Shown here: positions 5,178 through 20,567 of the stretch, piece by piece
Numbering within the stretch: position 1 is the first letter of the stretch
Layout: every line of letters begins with the position of its first letter
Assembly (NCBI GenBank): GCA_026708015.1
Contig: JAPOVT010000049.1
Coordinates: forward strand, 5,274 to 69,273
Direction: 5' to 3'
Length of the DNA stretch: 64,000 nucleotides
From: a bacterium
GTDB lineage: Bacteria; Actinomycetota; Acidimicrobiia; Acidimicrobiales; Bin134
Position numbers and translations under genes: made by a program
Notes under the pieces: generated by a model
The model's input: only the letters and a program-made list of their open reading frames with translations
Databases searched by the model: none
Told to the model about the DNA's origin: nothing

Positions 5178-5517
5178 GTTCGCCGAGGCGCTCGAGGAAC
5201 TGGGTGGGAGCGCCCACGTATTGGGCGATCTCGGCCCTTGTCAGCAATTCGCTCCACTGCCCGTCGTGGTGGCGAACAATGGAAGGCAACCCAGTAGCAG
5301 CAGCCAGCTGTTCAGCAGTGGCCTCGTTGCGGTGGACCAGGTCCAGCTCAACGTCGGAGACTTCGCAGGCCTGCTTCCAGCTCCGGGACCCCATCGGGTT
5401 CCACCCGTGGGTGATGTCGCACAGCGCGCACTTCCCCCGGCCCAAGACCTTCCCCATGGCATATCGCAGTTCGCCGCTGAGGCCTCCGTTGGCGTCGTAT
5501 ATCCCCACGAGAGACAC
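5170..5517 (-). CDS. conserved hypothetical protein with CxxC motif
   Basis: The ORF track gives 5170-5595. A GTG at 5517 avoids overlap with the upstream gene, which ends at 5546. Contains GKCALCDITHG. I do not recognise the family. Confidence 0.5.
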   Translation of the reverse strand: MSLVGIYDANGGLSGELRYAMGKVLGRGKCALCDITHGWNPMGSRSWKQACEVSDVELDLVHRNEATAEQLAAATGLPSIVRHHDGQWSELLTRAEIAQYVGAPTQFLERLGELS

Positions 5518-11884: not shown

Positions 11885-12412
11885 GTGGGGAGGCTTTTGG
11901 TGAAGCGGTATGTGGCTTTGGCGGTCGTGTTCTGTGTGGTGACAGCGGGCTTGGCGGTGCCTGCTGGGGGGCAGTTTGAGGATGGAGCTACAGTTCCGCC
12001 TGGACCTCCAGCTTCGACTGCGACGAGGTCGGTTGCGGGATTGGTAGAAGGGGGCGGTGCTGTTGGGGCGGAGGGTTCGGAGGTTTTCGTTCCAGTTCCG
12101 GCAGTGCCCGGTGTGCCGCCTGCTGATGGGCCGCTTTCGGACGATGCGGCTGGGCTAGATGACGGCACTCCTGCTGAGGGGGCAGATGGTGCGTCGGAAC
12201 CGCCCCCGGAGCCAACACCGGATCCGGTTGCGGTGGATAACGGTTCTGAATCAGGGCCGGTTCCGGTTGTTGGAGAGTTCGGGCCTGCGCCCGAGGGTTT
12301 TGAGGGGTTGCCGCCTTGCGGCGAGGGCTATGTGTGCGGGCAGGCAAGCATTCTGCCGCCGCCGACAGGTTTGTCTTGTTCGGCGACGGCGTCGTCGATT
12401 GCGTTCTCATGA
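11885..12412 (+). CDS. N-terminal segment of a giant secreted FN3-repeat protein. It has a signal/anchor, a Pro/Gly/Glu-rich linker and the start of module 1, and ends at an in-frame TGA.
   Basis: Hydrophobic KRYVALAVVFCVVTAGLAVPAGG. The ORF ends ...PPPTGLSCSATASSIAFS*, exactly where the paralogous module reads ...PAPTGLACSATPTSISFSW. Confidence 0.7.
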   Translation: MGRLLVKRYVALAVVFCVVTAGLAVPAGGQFEDGATVPPGPPASTATRSVAGLVEGGGAVGAEGSEVFVPVPAVPGVPPADGPLSDDAAGLDDGTPAEGADGASEPPPEPTPDPVAVDNGSESGPVPVVGEFGPAPEGFEGLPPCGEGYVCGQASILPPPTGLSCSATASSIAFS

Positions 12413-15400
12413 AATGCGGTTGCGGGTGCGGACGACTATACGGCGAAGCTCCAGTTGGCAGTGCCCAACAGTCCTCAAACCCCGAAGACCACATCTTCGA
12501 CTTCGGTGACATTCACCGAATTGTTGTCGTCAACGAGGTACTACCTGGGTGTTCATGCCAATGTGGATGGCGCGGCCCAGTACTTTTCGGGCATCTATTG
12601 CACAACCCCGGTGGGACCGCCGGCCTGCGGGACGGTTTCGGCGAGTTCGGTGCGGTTGAATTGGCGGGCTGATTCCCGGGTCAACAGCTGGTATGTGGGC
12701 CGAAGGACCACACCGGGTAACTATGTTGACGGGCGGTCTGCTCTGGGGTCCACGCTGACGACGACATTCACCGGCTTGGCCAGGAATGTGTCGTACACAT
12801 TCTACTTCTGGTACCGGCTATCGCCTGGGGGAACGTGGCATCAGGTTCATCCCAGCAGGTCGTGTACCACGACAGCGCCGCCGTCGGCACCCTCAGTTTC
12901 CTGCACGACTACGGCAAGCAGTATCACTGCCACGTGGGGGTCGGTTGCGGGGGCGGCCCGGTATCGGGTTTCCAGGGGCGCTGGGTGGGCCACTGCCTCT
13001 GGGCGGAGCCATGTGTTCTCCAACCTGGAGGAGTCGACTGCCTATACCGTGAGAGTCCAAGGCGGCAACACGGCTGGCTGGGGCGCCGTCGGGACGGCGA
13101 GCTGTACAACTGCGACGTCGGTTCTCCCGGCGCCCACCGGTCTAGCGTGCTCGGCGACACCCACGTCGATCTCGTTCTCTTGGAACTCGGTCGCGGGTGC
13201 CGACAGCTATATGGCGAAGATCCAGCTCGCAGTGGCGGGCAGCCCGCAGACATCGAAGAGTGCGACATCGACATCGGTGGTGTTCGACAGCTTGGAGCCG
13301 GCCACGAGGTATTGGGTGGGCGTGCATGCGGTCAAGAGCAGCACGCCTCAGCTGTCTGCGGGCGTGTATTGCACGACCCTGGCCGACATCGCTGCGCCCG
13401 TCGTCTCATGTATGGTCACATCGACCACCATTATGGCGTCTTGGACGGCGATTACAGGGGCCACGAAGTACCGGGCCAAGCGGGGCAGTGATAGCTGGAC
13501 CTCTGACCTGACAGAGACGTCGCATGTGTTCTCGGGCTTGTCGTCGGGCACGGCCTACACCATTACCGTCCAGTCAGGCAGCACTGCGGGTTGGGGCCGG
13601 GCCGGCACAGCGACCTGCGTGACGATGGCGGCTGGGTTGAGTTGCGGGACGGCGACCATTTCCAGTGTGGTGTTGAACTGGGAGGCTAGGCCCGGGGTGA
13701 GGTGGTGGTACGCCGCCCGCTCAGTGCCCGGCGACTTCACCGACGGCAGGATGCTCGATGGAGAGCTGTCGACGAGGTTCACCGGTTTGTCCAAGGACAC
13801 CTCCTATGTGCTTCGCCTCTGGTGGTGGGGCAGCAGCCGGTGGAACGAAGTGACCCCTTCGCCGGTCTGCGAGACAACTCCGGTGGCCGCCCCGGTCTTG
13901 ACGGCCCACACCACGGGGGGCAACACGCTCACCATCGAGTGGAACCCGGTAGACGGTGCCGAGGTGTATCAGGTGAGGTACAGGCCAAGTCAGTCGGCTG
14001 GCGCCTCGGGGGCGTCCGGGACCAACGATTGGCGGACAGTGGTGTCGACGGGTGAGTTTCATACCGTCACTGGCCTGAGTCCCGGCACCGAGTACACGGT
14101 GGAGATCCGGGCCGGGATCGGAATCCCCCGGCGCTGGAGTGCGGTCCCCTCCTTTTCCCTTACGATGTCCCCAACCACTTGCGCAGCGAGCACCACGACG
14201 AGCGTCACGATCTCTTGGGACGACACCGCTGACCAGTACCACTGGCAGACCAGGCGGATAACGGGAATAAACCAGTACACCGACACCAAAACGTTTACCA
14301 AGGGCGGTGCTACCGAGGCGACGTACACCGGCCTCCAACCCGGCACGAAGTACTGGTTCGGCGTGTGGCGGCGCACAGAGACCACTGACCAGTGGCAGCC
14401 CTACACTCGCTTCCCTCATTGCCATACCAGCCCCAGCAATCCGGTGATCGACCAGTGCCCGCAAACCGCGGATTCCTCCGGCACGGTTCGATGGACGCCT
14501 AACGGCGCCTCCTCCTATCGGATCACCAGCCAAGGCACGGCAACCAACCCCAACTGGATTACCACCAACGCCAACTCCTATACCTTCACCGGTCTTGCCG
14601 AAGGCACCACCTATGCCGTCCAACTCCAAGCCTGGAACCCTTCGGGATGGAGCACCGGCAGCACCTGCCAATTGACAACTCTCCCGGCCATACCCACAGG
14701 AACGCTTACTACTACGAGCGGTACGAAGTACTATTTCACCAAAGGAACGGTCAAGGGAGTCCTCTACTCTGCAGGAAAGGCCATAAACGACAGGAGCACT
14801 TCAACCAGCACAGTCACTCAGATCACTTGCGGCAACGGCGGCAGTATGGCAATAAATCAACTCGCCGCGATCATGTTGTCGATACCAATCTACGAAATTG
14901 AATCTCCGACTAACGCCAATGCAGCCACATCTCCCATGGTGCTGAGTAGATGGGACAACCCCAGCCAGCAAGAGCAGACGCATGCGAGAATGACCGAGAG
15001 TTTGAACAAGAGGCTGTATTCGCATATGGACACGGCAGGGTATCTTAGGGCTCACTGGAGTCCCGGCGTTGGCCTATGGCAACTTGACCAACTTAACAAC
15101 ACTGTCTTGAACATGAACCATGCCGAGCGCGCAAACACCACAAAGGGCGGTGTCGAGGTTGCAAAGTGGCTGCTCAACGGTTATTGCCGTAACACCGCTG
15201 GAGATGCGGGACTCAAGACTGCCTTGAGGAGGTGGGTCGCTTGCTATGAGGAAACAAGCACAACCCACAGGTGCTACAACGCCTACAATAGCGGCCCGCT
15301 CAAGCTCTACGAGAACGGCAAACTCAACATAGGCGTTGCACAAACCCATGGAGATATTGATGGCGGCGTCAAGGAGCGCACATGTCGATGGATTTCAAAT

Positions 15401-15916
15401 GAGGAAGAAATGCCGTGCTTCCTTTATGATGCTGACGCACCTCAAGGGAAGATAAAAGGAGAAGACAAAACCGGTCAGAATAGTGCGCGAACTCCATTGG
15501 CAAAGGCATTCGTATCCCTCACCGATCCTGAAACGGGAACTAGATATGCGGCGTGGCCCAAACAGTGGCCGCGGTCATCGGCTTATGTGGATTGGCCCAC
15601 AGATGTAGTGGCCACAGATAAGACCATTTATAGAGCCGTCAAACAAAACGAGGAAGTCCGGTGTAGCCCCGGCCGCGATTCAACGCCAGAAACCGTAAAT
15701 GATTGTGCGGAAGGAACCTATAAGCCGTTCGGGGATGCGATCGCCAACGAAGACTTTTCCGGTGGAAATAGAATCGTAGAGGGTTGGTACGACGACTCAG
15801 TGCCCTTCCGCAATGGCGGTACTGCTGCGGACAGGCGCAATCTCCAGGTCCAAACCTGCGAAGCGAGAGTAATAGCTGGACAAAGCGTTGTCTACTGCAG
15901 GTGGGTAGATGTCTAG
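12413..15916 (+). CDS. continuation of the same reading frame: remainder of nine FN3-like modules plus a ~410-aa C-terminal SLT-like/Cys-rich domain
   Basis: Same frame as 11885-12412. No ATG, RBS or signal peptide of its own (the track start at 12455 is a TTG inside module 1). C-terminal motifs are IYEIES, GLWQLD and AYNSGP. Confidence 0.7.
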   Translation, partial: NAVAGADDYTAKLQLAVPNSPQTPKTTSSTSVTFTELLSSTRYYLGVHANVDGAAQYFSGIYCTTPVGPPACGTVSASSVRLNWRADSRVNSWYVGRRTTPGNYVDGRSALGSTLTTTFTGLARNVSYTFYFWYRLSPGGTWHQVHPSRSCTTTAPPSAPSVSCTTTASSITATWGSVAGAARYRVSRGAGWATASGRSHVFSNLEESTAYTVRVQGGNTAGWGAVGTASCTTATSVLPAPTGLACSATPTSISFSWNSVAGADSYMAKIQLAVAGSPQTSKSATSTSVVFDSLEPATRYWVGVHAVKSSTPQLSAGVYCTTLADIAAPVVSCMVTSTTIMASWTAITGATKYRAKRGSDSWTSDLTETSHVFSGLSSGTAYTITVQSGSTAGWGRAGTATCVTMAAGLSCGTATISSVVLNWEARPGVRWWYAARSVPGDFTDGRMLDGELSTRFTGLSKDTSYVLRLWWWGSSRWNEVTPSPVCETTPVAAPVLTAHTTGGNTLTIEWNPVDGAEVYQVRYRPSQSAGASGASGTNDWRTVVSTGEFHTVTGLSPGTEYTVEIRAGIGIPRRWSAVPSFSLTMSPTTCAASTTTSVTISWDDTADQYHWQTRRITGINQYTDTKTFTKGGATEATYTGLQPGTKYWFGVWRRTETTDQWQPYTRFPHCHTSPSNPVIDQCPQTADSSGTVRWTPNGASSYRITSQGTATNPNWITTNANSYTFTGLAEGTTYAVQLQAWNPSGWSTGSTCQLTTLPAIPTGTLTTTSGTKYYFTKGTVKGVLYSAGKAINDRSTSTSTVTQITCGNGGSMAINQLAAIMLSIPIYEIESPTNANAATSPMVLSRWDNPSQQEQTHARMTESLNKRLYSHMDTAGYLRAHWSPGVGLWQLDQLNNTVLNMNHAERANTTKGGVEVAKWLLNGYCRNTAGDAGLKTALRRWVACYEETSTTHRCYNAYNSGPLKLYENGKLNIGVAQTHGDIDGGVKERTCRWISNEEEMPCFLYDADAPQGKIKGEDKTGQNSARTPLAKAFVSLTDPETGTRYAAWPKQWPRSSAYVDWPTDVVATDKTIYRAVKQNEEVRCSPGRDSTPETVNDCAEGTYKPFGDAIANEDFSGGNRIVEGWYDDSVPFRNGGTAADRRNLQVQTCEARVIAGQSVVYCRWVDV

Positions 15917-15947
15917 AAGCCCTTCACGTGTCGAGAGAGGTGGAAGG

Positions 15948-18365
15948 ATGGGATTGAGCGCGTTGGTGATTGTTCGACGGGTTGCTGTGGTGATCGCGGC
16001 AGGAGGGCTTACTGTTGTCGGGTGCGGTAGCGAAACGGCTGGTCGAACTATGGCGGAGCCGATATCGGCGTCGGCACCCACACCAACGGACACGAAGGTA
16101 GCTGTGGCAGAAGAGCCTGCTGCTACAGAACTGCCAATTGTTGCCGGGGAGCCGTCTTGGGACCAAGATAAGTTGGAAAGGGAATCGCCGGTCGCCGCGC
16201 CTTCTACCACGCCGACGGTAGAAGCAACTTTGGATGACGACGACTCATCCACGACTGGAGCGGTTGGGGATTCGGAGCCTCCGGAGCTTCTAGAGCACGA
16301 CGTTTCGGATGAAGAGAATGCCCCTGACGATACGCCGCTAGCGTCCGATCCGGACTTCCCGCCACAAGCTGAAGATGTAGTAGTAATCGAATCTTTCAAT
16401 GTGAAAGAATGCGTGATGCGGGGAATGTTGCACAACCAGTCGGACAGCCTGTTTGCTAGAGATGTTGTGTTGATTATTGAATCTCCAGATAGGAGCAAGA
16501 AAGCCAGTTGGCATTGGCCGCTTATGATGCTGCCAGACGAGCGGGCACCTTTTGAAATCAATATAAATTGGTCGCGCAACGAACTCGCTGCAACTACTCC
16601 GAGTAATTCTCAATGGATGGAGCCGTATGATCTGGCGCAGAGTTCCTGGAGCAGTATATGGCACACCGTCACAGCGACCTTTTCTGAAAAGCCAGACGTG
16701 TCTCGCTCTTTCTCGTGGAATGCAGATGGGACCGAAGACTATAATCTGTTCCAATCATTTCAGAACTATTTGGTTTACGATGATCGAGTATTTGAGAGTG
16801 AAGATTGGTACGAATTTCGATACAGGGGAGGCCGCGGTGTCAGGCTCCTGCATCGCCATAAATTTGAGTTAGTTTACCCAAACTATCTCGTCATAAGTAA
16901 CGACCTCGACCCCATCTTATCTGAGTTCCAACCGTATGACTTTACCGACATTTACTATACCCCAGAAATTTCACCTCCAACCATTCGATATCAAACCCCC
17001 GAGATTCCATATCAGAAGTTTTATGATCCGATAAATGATCAGACCGCGAAAGACGTCAAAGTATATCAAGCTATTCTTGGACCAGGTGGAGTTCTAGACG
17101 TGAGAGAGCTCATACTTCACACAGTTGTAGAGGAAATAAGCCCGGAAGGAAGAATTGTGGATCGCACTATGACTCCAATTTCCGAACTTGTAAACTATGA
17201 TTCAGGCACCGCTATACCAGTTTATGTTCGAGTTACCACTCCAGATCGGATCGATAATCCACCAGGTGACAATTGGGACTACGAAGGAAAGGTCTGGATT
17301 GGGATTGCTGGCCAAGGAGATCCATTTGCAGATTCAAAAGATGTCTCGCAAGTATTGAGTTCTGGTAGACAAGGAAGAGATATTCCGCGCGGCACATGCG
17401 ACTTGCCAGGTGGATTGGCTGTACAAGATTTTATGATTCAAAGCAATAGTGGAATCGCAGGCCAGGTGTTCAATATCCCGTTGGGATATTTTGGAACATT
17501 TGACGCGTTCGAACCATCTCAAGAGGCGATCGACGATGTCATCGTTGAAGATGAAACGATTGCAATAATCGATGGTGTTATTCGAGGTTTGGTACACAAT
17601 CTTTCTGCCGACAAGTTTGCTCGGGGTGTGACCGTGACTGCGGTACCAAAGGATGGCAGCGAAGATAGCGCAAGCTGGCAGTGGCCACTGACTCTGCAAC
17701 CCGGTGAACGGGCTCCCTTCGAAATTATAGGCTGGAACGGTGTCTCTGATCCGGAGGCATTTTCTTTCCAAGTGTCAGCGTCGTTTTCAGAGCAGGTTGA
17801 TATCAGCCGCGCATTTCGTGTGGAAAGATCTAATAACTTTGGCTATGTGTATAAAGAGGATGCCAGGGAATTATACAATAGGGAAAAGTACCAAAACTCA
17901 TACCCTGGTAACTATAGGGATTATAATGTCTGGTTAGGTCAGAATCGAAACTATCTTCTTTGGGATGAGTTTGAAAAAATATACCTGGATGTCCTGACTC
18001 CTGATCTTGATTCCGATGTCGCAAAATTCGAATATTCGGAGATATATGCTAGCGTTGTGCGCGCTGACTCACATCCAAGTTTGGACGGTAAGATCGATAC
18101 GCAAGTCATTGATGAATTGAAGGCATATCGTGCCATCTTCAATTCAAATATGGAGGTCGTTGAAGTTTACGAGTTGATACCATTCACATCCGTCTATTCT
18201 TCGAACGCTCCTATCAATCGTCGCCTCATGCCAGTCAACGTTGTCCCCACGCCAAATGGCTGGACTCCTAAAACCGTACAGATGCTCTTGGTCTCCCCCA
18301 TGGAAAGTGAAGAGGACACTGAGACCTATTATTCCAGCCAGGTGTGGATTGGCGGAACGTCCTAG
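15948..18365 (+). CDS. lipoprotein of unknown family with an internal ~390-aa tandem duplication
   Basis: Signal plus lipobox MGLSALVIVRRVAVVIAAGGLTVVGC, preceded by AGGTGGAAGG. The alternative ATG 15909 overlaps the upstream stop. An acidic linker is followed by two homologous modules sharing HNxSxxxFARxV...ASWxWPLxLxPxERAPFEI. Confidence 0.75.
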   Translation: MGLSALVIVRRVAVVIAAGGLTVVGCGSETAGRTMAEPISASAPTPTDTKVAVAEEPAATELPIVAGEPSWDQDKLERESPVAAPSTTPTVEATLDDDDSSTTGAVGDSEPPELLEHDVSDEENAPDDTPLASDPDFPPQAEDVVVIESFNVKECVMRGMLHNQSDSLFARDVVLIIESPDRSKKASWHWPLMMLPDERAPFEININWSRNELAATTPSNSQWMEPYDLAQSSWSSIWHTVTATFSEKPDVSRSFSWNADGTEDYNLFQSFQNYLVYDDRVFESEDWYEFRYRGGRGVRLLHRHKFELVYPNYLVISNDLDPILSEFQPYDFTDIYYTPEISPPTIRYQTPEIPYQKFYDPINDQTAKDVKVYQAILGPGGVLDVRELILHTVVEEISPEGRIVDRTMTPISELVNYDSGTAIPVYVRVTTPDRIDNPPGDNWDYEGKVWIGIAGQGDPFADSKDVSQVLSSGRQGRDIPRGTCDLPGGLAVQDFMIQSNSGIAGQVFNIPLGYFGTFDAFEPSQEAIDDVIVEDETIAIIDGVIRGLVHNLSADKFARGVTVTAVPKDGSEDSASWQWPLTLQPGERAPFEIIGWNGVSDPEAFSFQVSASFSEQVDISRAFRVERSNNFGYVYKEDARELYNREKYQNSYPGNYRDYNVWLGQNRNYLLWDEFEKIYLDVLTPDLDSDVAKFEYSEIYASVVRADSHPSLDGKIDTQVIDELKAYRAIFNSNMEVVEVYELIPFTSVYSSNAPINRRLMPVNVVPTPNGWTPKTVQMLLVSPMESEEDTETYYSSQVWIGGTS

Positions 18366-18447
18366 CCTTGCTCGGTTAGTTGTCTTGACGGCACACATCC
18401 CGAGGTATGGGATGGTCACGTAATGGATCGGGTGGAAGCGATTGGGA

Positions 18448-19251
18448 TCAGTCCCTAATGGGCCAGCGTTCGGCGGTGGTGTTGGGGGCGGGCCAGGCGT
18501 CGGCGTTGAGGGCGGCGTCGCTGCCACCGTCCATGAACACCACCGAGCCGCAGAAAAAGCTGGCGTCAGGCGACAGCAGGAAGGCCAGAAGGTTGGCCAC
18601 CTCGGCAGGGCGTCCGGGACGGTTCTGAGGGATGGGGTAGACATCGCCCAGGTTCATGATCATGTCGATGTTGTCGGCCACCAACGGGGTGTCGATGAGC
18701 CCGGGGGCTACTGCGTTCAACCGGATGCCCGAACCGATCCAATCGGCGCCGATGGCGGTGCGGCGGACCCACCGGGCCAGGGCCAGTTTGCTGGTGGCGT
18801 AAGCCGTTCCCGGATCGGAGCCGGCCAGCTCTCTGGCTTGGGTCTCGTCGTCGTTGAGGCAGGCCTCGACCAGCCCATCGGGCAGGGCGACCAAAGTGGT
18901 ACTGGAGTTGGAGCTGATGGCCACTGCCGAAGAGTCGGTGCCCTGGGCCAACAAGGGGCGCAGTCCCTCCACGGTGGCCAGCGCACCGAAGTAGTTGATC
19001 GAAACCACTTGCTGAGGATCGGGCCCTGTGATCCCCGCTCCGGCCACCAGTCCGTCGATCCGGCCTCCGCTGGCTGCGGCCACCGCGCCGATCATCTCGG
19101 TGCGCCCCTCAGGAGTGGACAGATCGGCGATGACCTCGGCATCCCGTATGTCCACCCCGATCACCTCATGGCCGTCGCGGGCAAGCCGCTCCCTAGTGGC
19201 TTGGCCGATTCCGCCTGCTGATCCGGTGATGACAATCGTTCCCATGGGCAC
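18448..19251 (-). CDS. short-chain dehydrogenase/reductase (3-alpha-HSD-like SDR)
   Basis: 267 aa with TGSAGGIGQA cofactor motif and YATSKLAL catalytic YxxxK. Confidence 0.85.
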   Translation of the reverse strand: MPMGTIVITGSAGGIGQATRERLARDGHEVIGVDIRDAEVIADLSTPEGRTEMIGAVAAASGGRIDGLVAGAGITGPDPQQVVSINYFGALATVEGLRPLLAQGTDSSAVAISSNSSTTLVALPDGLVEACLNDDETQARELAGSDPGTAYATSKLALARWVRRTAIGADWIGSGIRLNAVAPGLIDTPLVADNIDMIMNLGDVYPIPQNRPGRPAEVANLLAFLLSPDASFFCGSVVFMDGGSDAALNADAWPAPNTTAERWPIRD

Positions 19252-19343: not shown

Positions 19344-20567
19344 ATGGACGGAATCGCTCTGCCCCGTCTCGCCGCTTCGAGCCTGGTCGACCGGCTGGAG
19401 GTCATGCCAGCGGTGGTAGTTACCGGCGCACGCCAATCGGGAAAGAGCACTCTTGTCCAGGAACTTATCCCTGGCACTCGACGCTATTTCACCCTTGACG
19501 ACCTCGATGTGATCGATGTGATCCGCAGCGATCCCGCCGCTCTGGTAGGCGGTAACCAGCCGACGGCCATCGATGAGGTGCAACGGGCACCCGAACTGCT
19601 TCATGAGATCAAGAAAGCCATCGATCGCGACCGCAAGCCGGGACAATTCCTATTGACCGGCTCAGCCAACCTGTTGTTGATGAGCCAGGTATCAGAGTCA
19701 TTGGCCGGAAGGGCCAGCTATCTGACGCTGGGGCCGATGACCCGCCGGGAGCAAATGGGCCTGGGTCGAGGTGGCGTTTGGGAGGAGTTGTTCAGCACCC
19801 CGGGTGAGGAATGGCTTGATCTGGTGGTTGCTCAACCCGGTAGCCGCGAGGATTGGCGCGCCCTTTGCCGACGGGGCGGATTTCCCCAGCCGGCGGTGCA
19901 TCTGGAAACTGCTGAGGAGCGGGCCATCTGGTTTGACGGCTACGTCAGGACCTACCTGGAGCGCGACTTGAGAGACCTCTCCTCGATATCGTCGCTCCCC
20001 GACTTCCGACGGTTGATGCGGGCCGCCTGCCACCGTGTGGGCCAGATTCTCAATCAGGTGGAATTGGGCCGCGACGTCGCACTGTCTCAGTCGACGGCTC
20101 ACCGGTATCTCAATCTGCTGGAGACTTCATACTTGTTGGTACGGCTTCCGGCATTTGCGGTGAACCGAACCAAGCGGCTCGTCAAGTCGCCCAAGCTCTA
20201 TTGGGGAGATATCGGATTGGCGCTTCATCTGGCCCAGACATCCGAGCCCGAAGGCGCCCACCTGGAAAACTTGGTGCTCTGCGACGTGCTGGCTTGGCGC
20301 GACGCACGAATCAACCAGGCCGATGTGTTCTATTGGCGAACGAGGACGGGGGAGGAGGTGGATTTGGTGATCGAGGTCGCCGACCGCCTGATTCCCATAG
20401 AGATCAAAGCCACCGAACGCCCTCGCCTCGGCGACGCCGCCCACCTGCGAGCGTTCCGAACCGAATATGGCGACCGGTCCGGCCCCGGCTTGCTCCTCCA
20501 TACCGGATCAACCATGGAATGGCTCACTCCCAACGTGCTTGCCGCCCCCTGGTGGAAGGTGATGTGA
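19344..20567 (+). CDS. AAA-type ATPase with C-terminal DUF4143-like domain
   Basis: 407 aa. Walker A is GARQSGKST. Overall similar to COG1373-type ATP-binding proteins. Confidence 0.7.
   Translation: MDGIALPRLAASSLVDRLEVMPAVVVTGARQSGKSTLVQELIPGTRRYFTLDDLDVIDVIRSDPAALVGGNQPTAIDEVQRAPELLHEIKKAIDRDRKPGQFLLTGSANLLLMSQVSESLAGRASYLTLGPMTRREQMGLGRGGVWEELFSTPGEEWLDLVVAQPGSREDWRALCRRGGFPQPAVHLETAEERAIWFDGYVRTYLERDLRDLSSISSLPDFRRLMRAACHRVGQILNQVELGRDVALSQSTAHRYLNLLETSYLLVRLPAFAVNRTKRLVKSPKLYWGDIGLALHLAQTSEPEGAHLENLVLCDVLAWRDARINQADVFYWRTRTGEEVDLVIEVADRLIPIEIKATERPRLGDAAHLRAFRTEYGDRSGPGLLLHTGSTMEWLTPNVLAAPWWKVM

Follow-up and report, generated by a model that had tools for sequence, protein, structure and literature searches.

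A mobile two-gene module of undescribed protein families in Acidimicrobiia, putatively a secreted effector and its lipoprotein partner

Peptidoglycan-targeting effectors with an envelope-located immunity protein or inhibitor are known from several systems, such as Tge/Tgi and Tse3/Tsi3 of the type VI secretion system (T6SS), TelC/TipC, and the lipoprotein lysozyme inhibitor MliC. In other bacteria some peptidoglycan enzymes are regulated by lipoproteins, and the WxL/Csc complexes of Firmicutes are encoded by operons which pair surface proteins bearing a conserved C-terminal module with an anchored partner. Here we analysed a stretch of 64,000 nucleotides (the window) from an Acidimicrobiia genome (assembly GCA_026708015.1, contig JAPOVT010000049.1, positions 5,274 to 69,273), in which two genes, A and B, stand between glnS and a short-chain dehydrogenase/reductase (SDR) gene. 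Gene A encodes a Sec-exported protein with a fibronectin type III (FN3) stalk and a conserved C-terminal domain (the A-domain), and gene B encodes a lipoprotein. The A-domain and B are two undescribed families, and the island that they form is a two-gene module, mobile and accessory, that occurs mainly in Acidimicrobiia. We tentatively read the mobile pair as a secreted wall-active effector with an immunity-like lipoprotein, a reading to which we give somewhat less than an even chance.

The kind of system, an effector with a cognate envelope protein, is known, and the families that build it here are both undescribed. In Tge/Tgi, Tse3/Tsi3, TelC/TipC and MliC, as is proposed for A and B, a wall-active secreted enzyme is neutralised on the outer side of the producer's membrane; but A and B have no sequence or fold relationship with these proteins and no associated secretion apparatus, and their activity is a prediction. 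The WxL/Csc complexes share the operon logic, and B has a weak fold match to the WxL-interacting protein (WxLIP) 9i1y, but there is no homology, and the A-domain has enzyme-like invariant residues and occurs without a stalk. Polymorphic toxin-immunity loci (Rhs, contact-dependent inhibition, and LXG of the type VII secretion system) resemble the locus in the secreted multidomain protein with a C-terminal effector-like domain, the immediately adjacent and co-inherited cognate gene, the lower GC content of the C-terminal domain and partner, tandem arrays with apparently leaderless copies, presence/absence polymorphism, and loss of the effector with the partner kept. However, in A it is the C-terminal domain that is conserved (424 clusters) and the N-terminal stalk that varies (FN3, PPC, FG-GAP, PKD or none), export depends on a Sec signal only and Rhs, LXG and pre-toxin modules were not found, the partner is a lipoprotein of several domains and about 370-960 aa, and the unit gained or lost is the whole gene and not the tip. 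With a conserved C-terminal domain and variable stalks, gene A is therefore not a classical polymorphic toxin, and the polymorphic-toxin logic which a sequence-only reading of the window had proposed is not supported.

The module and its linkage across genomes

The features of the island are given below.

11808 to about 18440, + strand: inserted island with all of gene A and gene B, from the glnS stop to the SDR stop (empty site in L045/L046; right boundary approximate)
11885 to 15916, + strand: gene A, one frame of 1343 codons with an internal stop (translation)
11885 to 11974, + strand: Sec-type signal peptide of A (VGRLLVKRYVALAVVFCVVTAGLAVPAGGQ), read from the translation
11975 to 12340, + strand: Pro/Gly/Ala/Asp-rich linker of A, GC content at third codon positions (GC3) 0.47-0.57 (translation, GC3 windows)
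12341 to 14680, + strand: stalk of about nine FN3-like modules, GC3 0.62-0.87, near host-like (Pfam fn3, GC3)
12410 to 12412, + strand: in-frame TGA in place of a consensus FN3 Trp (translation, sister contigs)
14681 to 15913, + strand: A-domain, 411 aa, Cys-rich, globular; N-terminal half helical, C-terminal half rich in beta strands (family profile, AlphaFold2)
15948 to 18365, + strand: gene B, intact, an 805-aa lipoprotein of undescribed family (translation, sister-contig gene calls)
15948 to 16025, + strand: signal peptide and lipobox of B (L-T-V-V-G-C26), read from the translation
16026 to 16343, + strand: acidic, Pro/Thr-rich linker of B, about 100 aa, probably disordered (translation)
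16344 to 17462, + strand: B module 1, with the motif RG..HN.S..FAR.V ... SW.WPL..P.E.APFE (internal duplication, beta-sandwich model)
17463 to 18362, + strand: B module 2, shared with the single-module B of L004 and L005 (46% identity over 122 aa to L004 B)

Neither the A-domain nor B matched Pfam, NCBIfam, PADLOC, PHROGs or PDB sequences (for the A-domain also with its profile against PDB), which agrees with the sequence-only reading that both are undescribed. The sole exception in the library scans was a sub-threshold PARP12 winged-helix match, which we treated as noise. The single-sequence search of PDB gave chance matches only (SoxA, E = 0.85), and with the profile there were no matches at all. 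Plasmid and phage collections contained nothing similar to the A-domain by tblastn, and no description of the A-B pair was found in the literature. In a search of 1.84 billion representatives the A-domain profile matched 424 clusters (50% identity), and 140 of these reached E<=1e-30; the database names of the homologues are "hypothetical protein" or descriptions of domain repeats. The named sources are mostly metagenome-assembled genomes (MAGs) of Acidimicrobiia (Ca. Poriferisocius, Poriferisodalis, Aldehydirespirator, Ilumatobacter), together with one Pirellulaceae MAG and a weak match in Murinocardiopsis flavida (L035), the only cultured match, whose context is uninformative.

Linkage was surveyed with hidden Markov models of both families against the stop-to-stop open reading frames (ORFs) of 30 GTDB loci, 28 of which had room for a partner. 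B was directly adjacent to A on the same strand in 27 of these 28 informative loci; A comes first in 24 of them and B in three (L021, L022, L025). The weak and distant match L035 was the only one without B. Further A-B pairs were found in L004, where the pair sits between thiolase and PIN genes, and in L005, L044 and L047. The pair stands behind FN3, PPC or no stalk; co-inheritance of the C-terminal domain with the lipoprotein, and pairs behind different N-terminal stalks in other genomes, had both been named as checks in the sequence-only reading, and both came out in its favour. A and B are among the most consistently linked testable gene pairs in these uncultivated marine Acidimicrobiia. 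The genomic setting varies from pair to pair; in L005 (7327-12760) the pair and two small ORFs lie between ruvA and ruvB and split the otherwise conserved ruvCAB.

Tandem arrays also occur: L029 has four A-B pairs and L028 two, L015 and L034 have the order A-B-B, and L027 and L028 carry extra pairs or remnants. The four consecutive pairs of L029 (1-12939, Ca. Poriferisodalis chromosome NZ_OZ240249.1) are on one strand, and all their B proteins have lipoboxes. The array copies of A in L027-L029 have no recognisable signal peptide at their predicted starts, and many other A proteins have Sec signals. In L042/L043 (4322-9145) a gene for a weak B homologue immediately precedes that for P0019, a short secreted A. 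The neighbours are Mu-type transposase, IstB and rve integrase genes, and the MAG bears the label Pseudomonadota; a mobile context or mis-binning could explain this setting.

Every domain that accompanies the A-domain is an extracellular scaffold (FN3, FG-GAP, PPC, PKD, SLH and InlB B-repeat). Proteins of 313-357 aa consist of a signal peptide and the A-domain alone, so the stalk is dispensable. The minimal unit is signal peptide, A-domain and B; the FN3 stalk is an interchangeable spacer, and the working part of the Sec-exported protein A is the conserved, disulfide-rich A-domain. The subfamily of the window has a longer A-domain with a two-module B, and the L004/L005 types have a shorter A-domain with a one-module B. 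A distant unpaired A-domain protein of 752 aa (P0166, L041 6001-8259) lies in a cell-wall gene context, with genes for a GT2 glycosyltransferase, a sugar nucleotidyltransferase, a 774-aa protein with a GH25 muramidase domain and a MurJ-like flippase as neighbours; it has no B partner and retains the invariant residues of the A-domain.

The insertion was delimited with L045 and L046, whose backbone is 85-90% identical to that of the window and has the same order, EamA, PNPOx, FAD oxidoreductase, amidohydrolase and glnS, then SDR, ECH, DM13 and ECH. There 36 nt separate the glnS stop from the SDR gene (5266-5301), which is an empty site, and therefore the insertion is the whole 6.6-kb block of A and B and not a C-terminal cassette on a resident stalk. 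L045 has a lone B homologue (64% amino acid identity) beyond the SDR gene with no detectable A, and L046 likewise has B alone. This lone B occupies the spot of the AAA_14/DUF4143 ATPase gene of the window (19344-20567), and the neighbourhood around the SDR gene is a variable hotspot. No glnS/SDR synteny was found in L006-L012, and no tRNA, flanking direct repeats or DNA-level repeats were found near the island.

The most likely start of B is the ATG at 15948, which lies 31 nt past the TAG of A with a Shine-Dalgarno-like GGTGGAAGG just upstream, and the gene callers of the sister contigs picked the same 805-aa product. The sequence-only reading had placed a lipoprotein gene abutting or overlapping the stop of A; the lipoprotein stands, with a size of 805 aa, and an overlap would arise only from the alternative ATG at 15909. 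The lipoprotein call is a prediction read from the lipobox VVGC, with Cys26 at 16023-16025. This Cys is at least 90% conserved among 22 homologues and is present in all B copies but one in the other surveyed loci. The mature part has two tandem copies of one module, an internal duplication, and B ranges from about 370 to 960 aa in the family. The structure model of B is mediocre (predicted local distance difference test, pLDDT, 64), and Foldseek returned only generic Ig/MG-like beta-sandwich proteins at low probability; homology with alpha-2-macroglobulin or integrin was not accepted on such weak matches.

Resemblance of the A-domain to lytic transglycosylases

The conserved positions of the A-domain in the window are the following.

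14894 to 14896, + strand: Glu72, invariant, directly after helix 58-67, candidate catalytic acid (37 divergent members; hhalign onto the SLT catalytic Glu)
14948 to 14956, + strand: Arg90-x-Asp92 in the SPMxLSRxD motif, invariant (family alignments)
15065 to 15088, + strand: G129-V-G-L-W-Q-L-D136, GLMQ-like, with G129, G131, Q134 and D136 invariant (alignments; hhalign against SLT GLMQ)
15116 to 15151, + strand: N146-H-A-E-R150 ... G156-G157, conserved (alignments; spacing from GLWQ like E. coli MltF, by eye)
15233 to 15244, + strand: W185-x-x-C188, conserved, by its spacing a possible counterpart of the SLT YNxG (alignments)
15281 to 15298, + strand: AYNSGP (201-206), only in the window sequence and not conserved (alignment A1, columns 901-925)

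Residues invariant in 37 divergent members, whose identity to the first entry of alignment A2 is 22-31%, are E72, R90, D92, G129, G131, Q134, D136 and six Cys, and also W185, G256, P272, F277 and W369. The A-domain was compared position by position with the family-1 lytic transglycosylases of the goose-type lysozyme superfamily (GH23, PF01464), to which the sequence-only reading had likened it through the motif order E-S, GLWQ and AYNSGP. The coordinates of these motifs were right (E74-S75 at 14900-14905, G131-L-W-Q134 at 15071-15082, AYNSGP at 15281-15298), but only GLWQ is conserved. The conserved Glu is E72 and not E74, and the residue after it is I, L, V or A, not Ser. Glu72 follows a hydrophobic helix (58-67) and may correspond to the Glu of SLT motif I. 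Motif II (G-L-M-Q) has its equivalent in G131-L-W-Q134-L-D136, which is invariant or nearly so, the family having G-L-W-Q-[LI]-D where SLT has G-L-M-Q-[IV]. AYNSGP, which would be motif III (A-Y-N-x-G), falls in a variable, indel-rich stretch. The spacing from GLxQ to AE[RQ], GG and the aromatic residue matches that of MltF by eye: the helix AE[RQ]...GG..[VY][AL]..L is present, and an aromatic residue stands about 54 residues past the Gly of GLxQ. With this MltF-like spacing, W185-x-x-C188 and not AYNSGP would be the positional counterpart of YNxG.

The differences are also clear. Glu72 and GLWQ are separated by about 59 aa, against about 15 in E. coli SLT domains, and this wider gap holds the A-domain's own invariant SPMxLSRxD; the Ser of ES and AYNxG are absent; and there is an extra Cys-rich beta half of about 200 aa. 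PF01464 gave no match for the window protein (E<=10), for 24 members (E<=1) or for 37 further members (E<=0.001), and the family profile had 0 matches at E<=10 among PDB sequences. AlphaFold2 gave a confident model of the A-domain (pLDDT 80.4, predicted template modelling score (pTM) 0.84, from a 24-sequence alignment), in which residues 70-140, bearing the motifs, are the least confident stretch of the N-terminal half (pLDDT 65-78). Foldseek of this model against PDB and BFVD gave nothing at E<0.4, with no lysozyme or transglycosylase in the top 50. The lysozyme-like fold that structure prediction was expected to reveal was thus not seen for the model with pTM 0.84.

Profile-profile comparison was made with an SLT profile built from E. 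coli Slt70, MltC, EmtA, MltD and MltF and a 97-sequence A-core alignment. With the whole domain the hhalign probability was 0.7%; it was 2.2-2.7% when only residues 50-215 were used and 4.1% with residues 118-215. The best local matches placed lmLaI..E onto the SLT catalytic l.aI..ES and VGlWQLD onto GLMQ, with scores of 20.0 and 19.4 against shuffle means of 11.9 and 10.6 and 95th percentiles of 16.0 and 14.9. For each motif one of 99 column-shuffled SLT profiles reached the score (p about 0.01 per motif). After removal of residues 76-122, a 47-residue insert, both motifs fell in one alignment and the probability was 17%, a deletion which was chosen with the motif positions known. These searches do not support membership of the A-domain in GH23/SLT. 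The A-domain may still bear a weak resemblance to the SLT active site, at the correct motifs, in the invariant Glu72 after a helix and in GLWQLD. A confident model with no fold match in PDB or BFVD, and two families absent from the searched libraries, make the locus worth attention.

Base composition and lesions of gene A

The GC content is 0.62-0.70 on both flanks, 0.52-0.54 at 14600-15800 and 0.40-0.49 at 16400-18400, and it is back to 0.66 from 18400 onward (400-bp windows). In 1200-bp windows the mean of the 64 kb is 0.641 (sd 0.041), and those with GC <0.56 all start at 14201-17801 and nowhere else, with the minimum of 0.447 at 17001. Of the flanking genes, glnS has a GC3 of 0.885 and the SDR gene 0.80; in the island the value is 0.76 for the FN3 stalk, 0.57 for the C-terminal domain and 0.45 for mature B. 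In 60-codon windows GC3 is 0.75-0.87 until 14674 and then 0.63 and 0.58 in windows spanning 14585-14854, and this step coincides with the FN3/C-terminal junction of gene A. The break itself lies in the windows of 14585-14764, and across it GC3 goes down from 0.75-0.87 to 0.45-0.65. The abrupt drop at this junction, lasting through the next gene, had been noticed by counting single lines, and it was confirmed by both GC window sizes and by GC3. Amino acid composition was rejected as the source, because the drop falls on synonymous sites. The leader and linker of gene A are low too (GC3 0.47-0.57, leader 11885-12340).

The same break is present in the orthologues L006-L012 (GC3 0.73-0.83 in the stalk, 0.46-0.53 in the A-domain and 0.37-0.49 in B), whose A-domains are 45-54% identical to that of the window, and a single recent transfer into the window genome therefore cannot explain it. 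Other subfamilies have little or no break, with GC3 for stalk, A-domain and B of 0.81/0.82/0.83 in L013 and 0.84/0.79/0.80 in L005. The low GC3 of leader, A-domain and B is a stable property of the subfamily of the window, and most likely reflects horizontal circulation or exclusion from GC-biased recombination. The unit may circulate horizontally and recurrently, or its local GC3 equilibrium may differ, for example if fast-diverging cassettes are barred from GC-biased homologous recombination and FN3 repeats are not. An intragenic GC3 discontinuity kept across orthologues diverged to about 50% identity is not accounted for by a simple recent transfer, and the locus could serve to test ideas on recombination-driven GC content.

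Gene A is probably inactivated in the window genome. The TGA at 12410-12412 (FS*NAVAGAD vs FSWNSVAGAD) separates the secretion signal from the remainder of the gene, so that the signal which the sequence-only reading had assigned to the stalk protein is present, at 11885, but cut off from the rest. L001 and L003, 98-99% identical to the window, have TGG at this place and lack one base at window position 12957, which causes a frameshift in A; closely related strains thus disrupt gene A by different lesions. The TGA and the 1-nt deletion are two independent inactivating lesions within one species-level clade. Recoding of TGA is unlikely, since 27 of the 46 long ORFs of the window end in TGA, more than in any other stop codon, and a repeat-collapse assembly artefact was rejected as the cause of the stop, there being no DNA repeats >=30 nt.

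Intact orthologues of A exist in L006, L007, L009, L010 and L012 (1370-1434 aa); these and L047 (at least 1368 aa) have intact A with homologous leaders in different genomic contexts, the leader being 44-55% identical in L006-L012. Elsewhere A is broken: in L044 it is split across three frames by two frameshifts with B intact, and in L008, L015 and L032 it is truncated or split. A is lost more often than B, with lesions of A in the window, L001, L003, L044, L015 and L032, B alone in L045 and L046, and extra B in L015 and L034. Between the window and L001, 2/411 codons differ in the A-domain, 15/805 in B (8 synonymous, 7 nonsynonymous), 48/581 in glnS and 88/267 in the SDR gene, and the differences in B are not pseudogene-like.

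Effector, display complex or autolysin

In the effector reading, the A-domain would be a putative enzyme with an invariant set of Glu, Arg, Asp, Gln and Asp, whose predicted target is most likely cell-wall glycan, attacked by a lytic-transglycosylase-like acid-catalysed mechanism (Glu72 after the helix, then GLWQLD). From its tether on the outside of the cytoplasmic membrane, B is predicted to bind the A-domain and to shield the wall of the producer, so that the pair would combine an exported antibacterial effector with a partner resembling an immunity protein. The window genome, with A broken and B intact, would then be an "immunity-only" genotype. We favour this because stalk-less A is still paired with B, because unpaired members keep the catalytic-looking residues, one of them amid GT2, GH25 and MurJ-like genes, because arrays hold apparently leaderless copies, and because A decays repeatedly while B is retained or duplicated. 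Arrays, empty site, low GC3 and loss of A with retention of B are signatures of conflict systems, and the conserved Cys with FN3, FG-GAP, PPC, PKD and SLH partners point to an extracellular location. Several points weigh against it. Toxicity, muralytic activity and A-B binding are predictions from sequence; no lysozyme-like fold was found by Foldseek in PDB and BFVD despite the confident model, in which residues 70-140 have pLDDT 65-78; and hhalign against SLT gave <=4%, or 17% after removal of the 47-residue insert. B (about 370-960 aa) is far larger than typical immunity proteins, and the only likeness of its model is to generic Ig/MG-like sandwiches. The A-domain forms a single conserved family with no polymorphic set, and neither a dedicated secretion system nor a pre-toxin domain was found. 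MAG assembly errors may account for some of the disruptions of A, and retention of B is also to be expected if B functions independently.

B could instead be the membrane anchor and the A-domain the docking module of a cell-surface display complex, analogous to WxL/Csc, holding variable adhesive stalks (FN3, FG-GAP, PKD) for interaction with a sponge or coral host, which we consider improbable, with perhaps one chance in several. It would suit that A has no sortase motif or other anchor while B is always a lipoprotein with a long linker, that the partner domains of A are adhesion-type scaffolds, and that B is a string of beta-sandwiches with a WxL-interacting protein among its weak fold matches. 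Sponge-symbiotic Actinobacteriota are enriched in FN3 proteins (PMC11706023), which is also in line with display. However, stalk-less secreted A-domains are paired with B too, the invariant charged residues persist in members without B, B persists where A is broken or absent, and the family is also found in Ilumatobacter, an Acidimicrobiia genus that is not among the named sponge symbionts, and in one MAG of Pirellulaceae. If A rather remodels the producer's own wall as a housekeeping or accessory autolysin, which B activates or spatially restricts, the enzyme-like conservation with weak SLT-type motifs, the cell-wall gene context of P0166 and the tight linkage (Shine-Dalgarno 31 nt after the stop of A) would be expected; but the pair is present or absent between related genomes, occurs in multi-copy arrays, has low GC3 and has A repeatedly inactivated, which argues for a dispensable, conflict-type function, and we rate an autolysin as slightly less credible still than display. 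The least plausible, which we hold to be very unlikely, is the version in which a bona fide family-1 (GH23/SLT) cassette with an inhibitor gene was recently fused onto a resident FN3 stalk by horizontal transfer. The GC3 break exactly at the FN3/A-domain junction fits it, as do the conserved GLWQ and Glu after a helix and the fall of hhalign on the correct motifs. Yet PF01464, PDB sequences and folds gave no match, the Ser of ES and AYNSGP are not conserved, the same architecture and GC3 break are present in orthologues 45-54% identical in the A-domain, and the unit of insertion, judged from the L045 empty site, is the whole of A and B, with a leader of low GC3 as well. The notion of a foreign C-terminal cassette grafted on a resident stalk is therefore not supported.

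A bolder form of the effector reading, which we consider possible but doubtful, is that the pair represents a previously unrecognised Sec-dependent antagonism system, largely specific to Acidimicrobiia. Its effector would have either a new fold or a GH23-like core too diverged to be recognised, its immunity proteins would form a new class of large lipoproteins that span the wall, and its arrays would hold silent cassettes; populations associated with hosts would often have lost the effector and kept immunity. Should A be a wall-active effector with B as its protector, the pair would be a new route of bacterial competition in dense host-associated communities, and both a new muralytic or hydrolase scaffold and a new type of inhibitor would come with it.

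Some minor observations concern the stalk and the surroundings. Pfam fn3 (PF00041) matched the stalk at E = 1.1e-40 (138 bits, 6 stretches passing), and the count of about nine modules is a reading of the translation. FN3 modules 1-6 (12341-13700) look like a duplicated triplet, in which 1-3 resemble 4-6, for example LPPPTGLSCSATASSIAFS vs LPAPTGLACSATPTSISFSW; the copies have diverged in DNA, with no repeats >=30 nt. Promoter and terminator scans gave nothing above shuffle expectation. The SDR gene (18448-19251, minus strand) differs in 88/267 codons from L001 and in 41/267 from L002, against 11/380 in the amidohydrolase gene and 4/407 in AAA_14; the divergence of the SDR gene suggests allelic replacement by recombination beside the island. 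Far from the island, a tRNA-Val (CAC) lies at 223-298, and Rfam detected no other RNA gene in the 64 kb.

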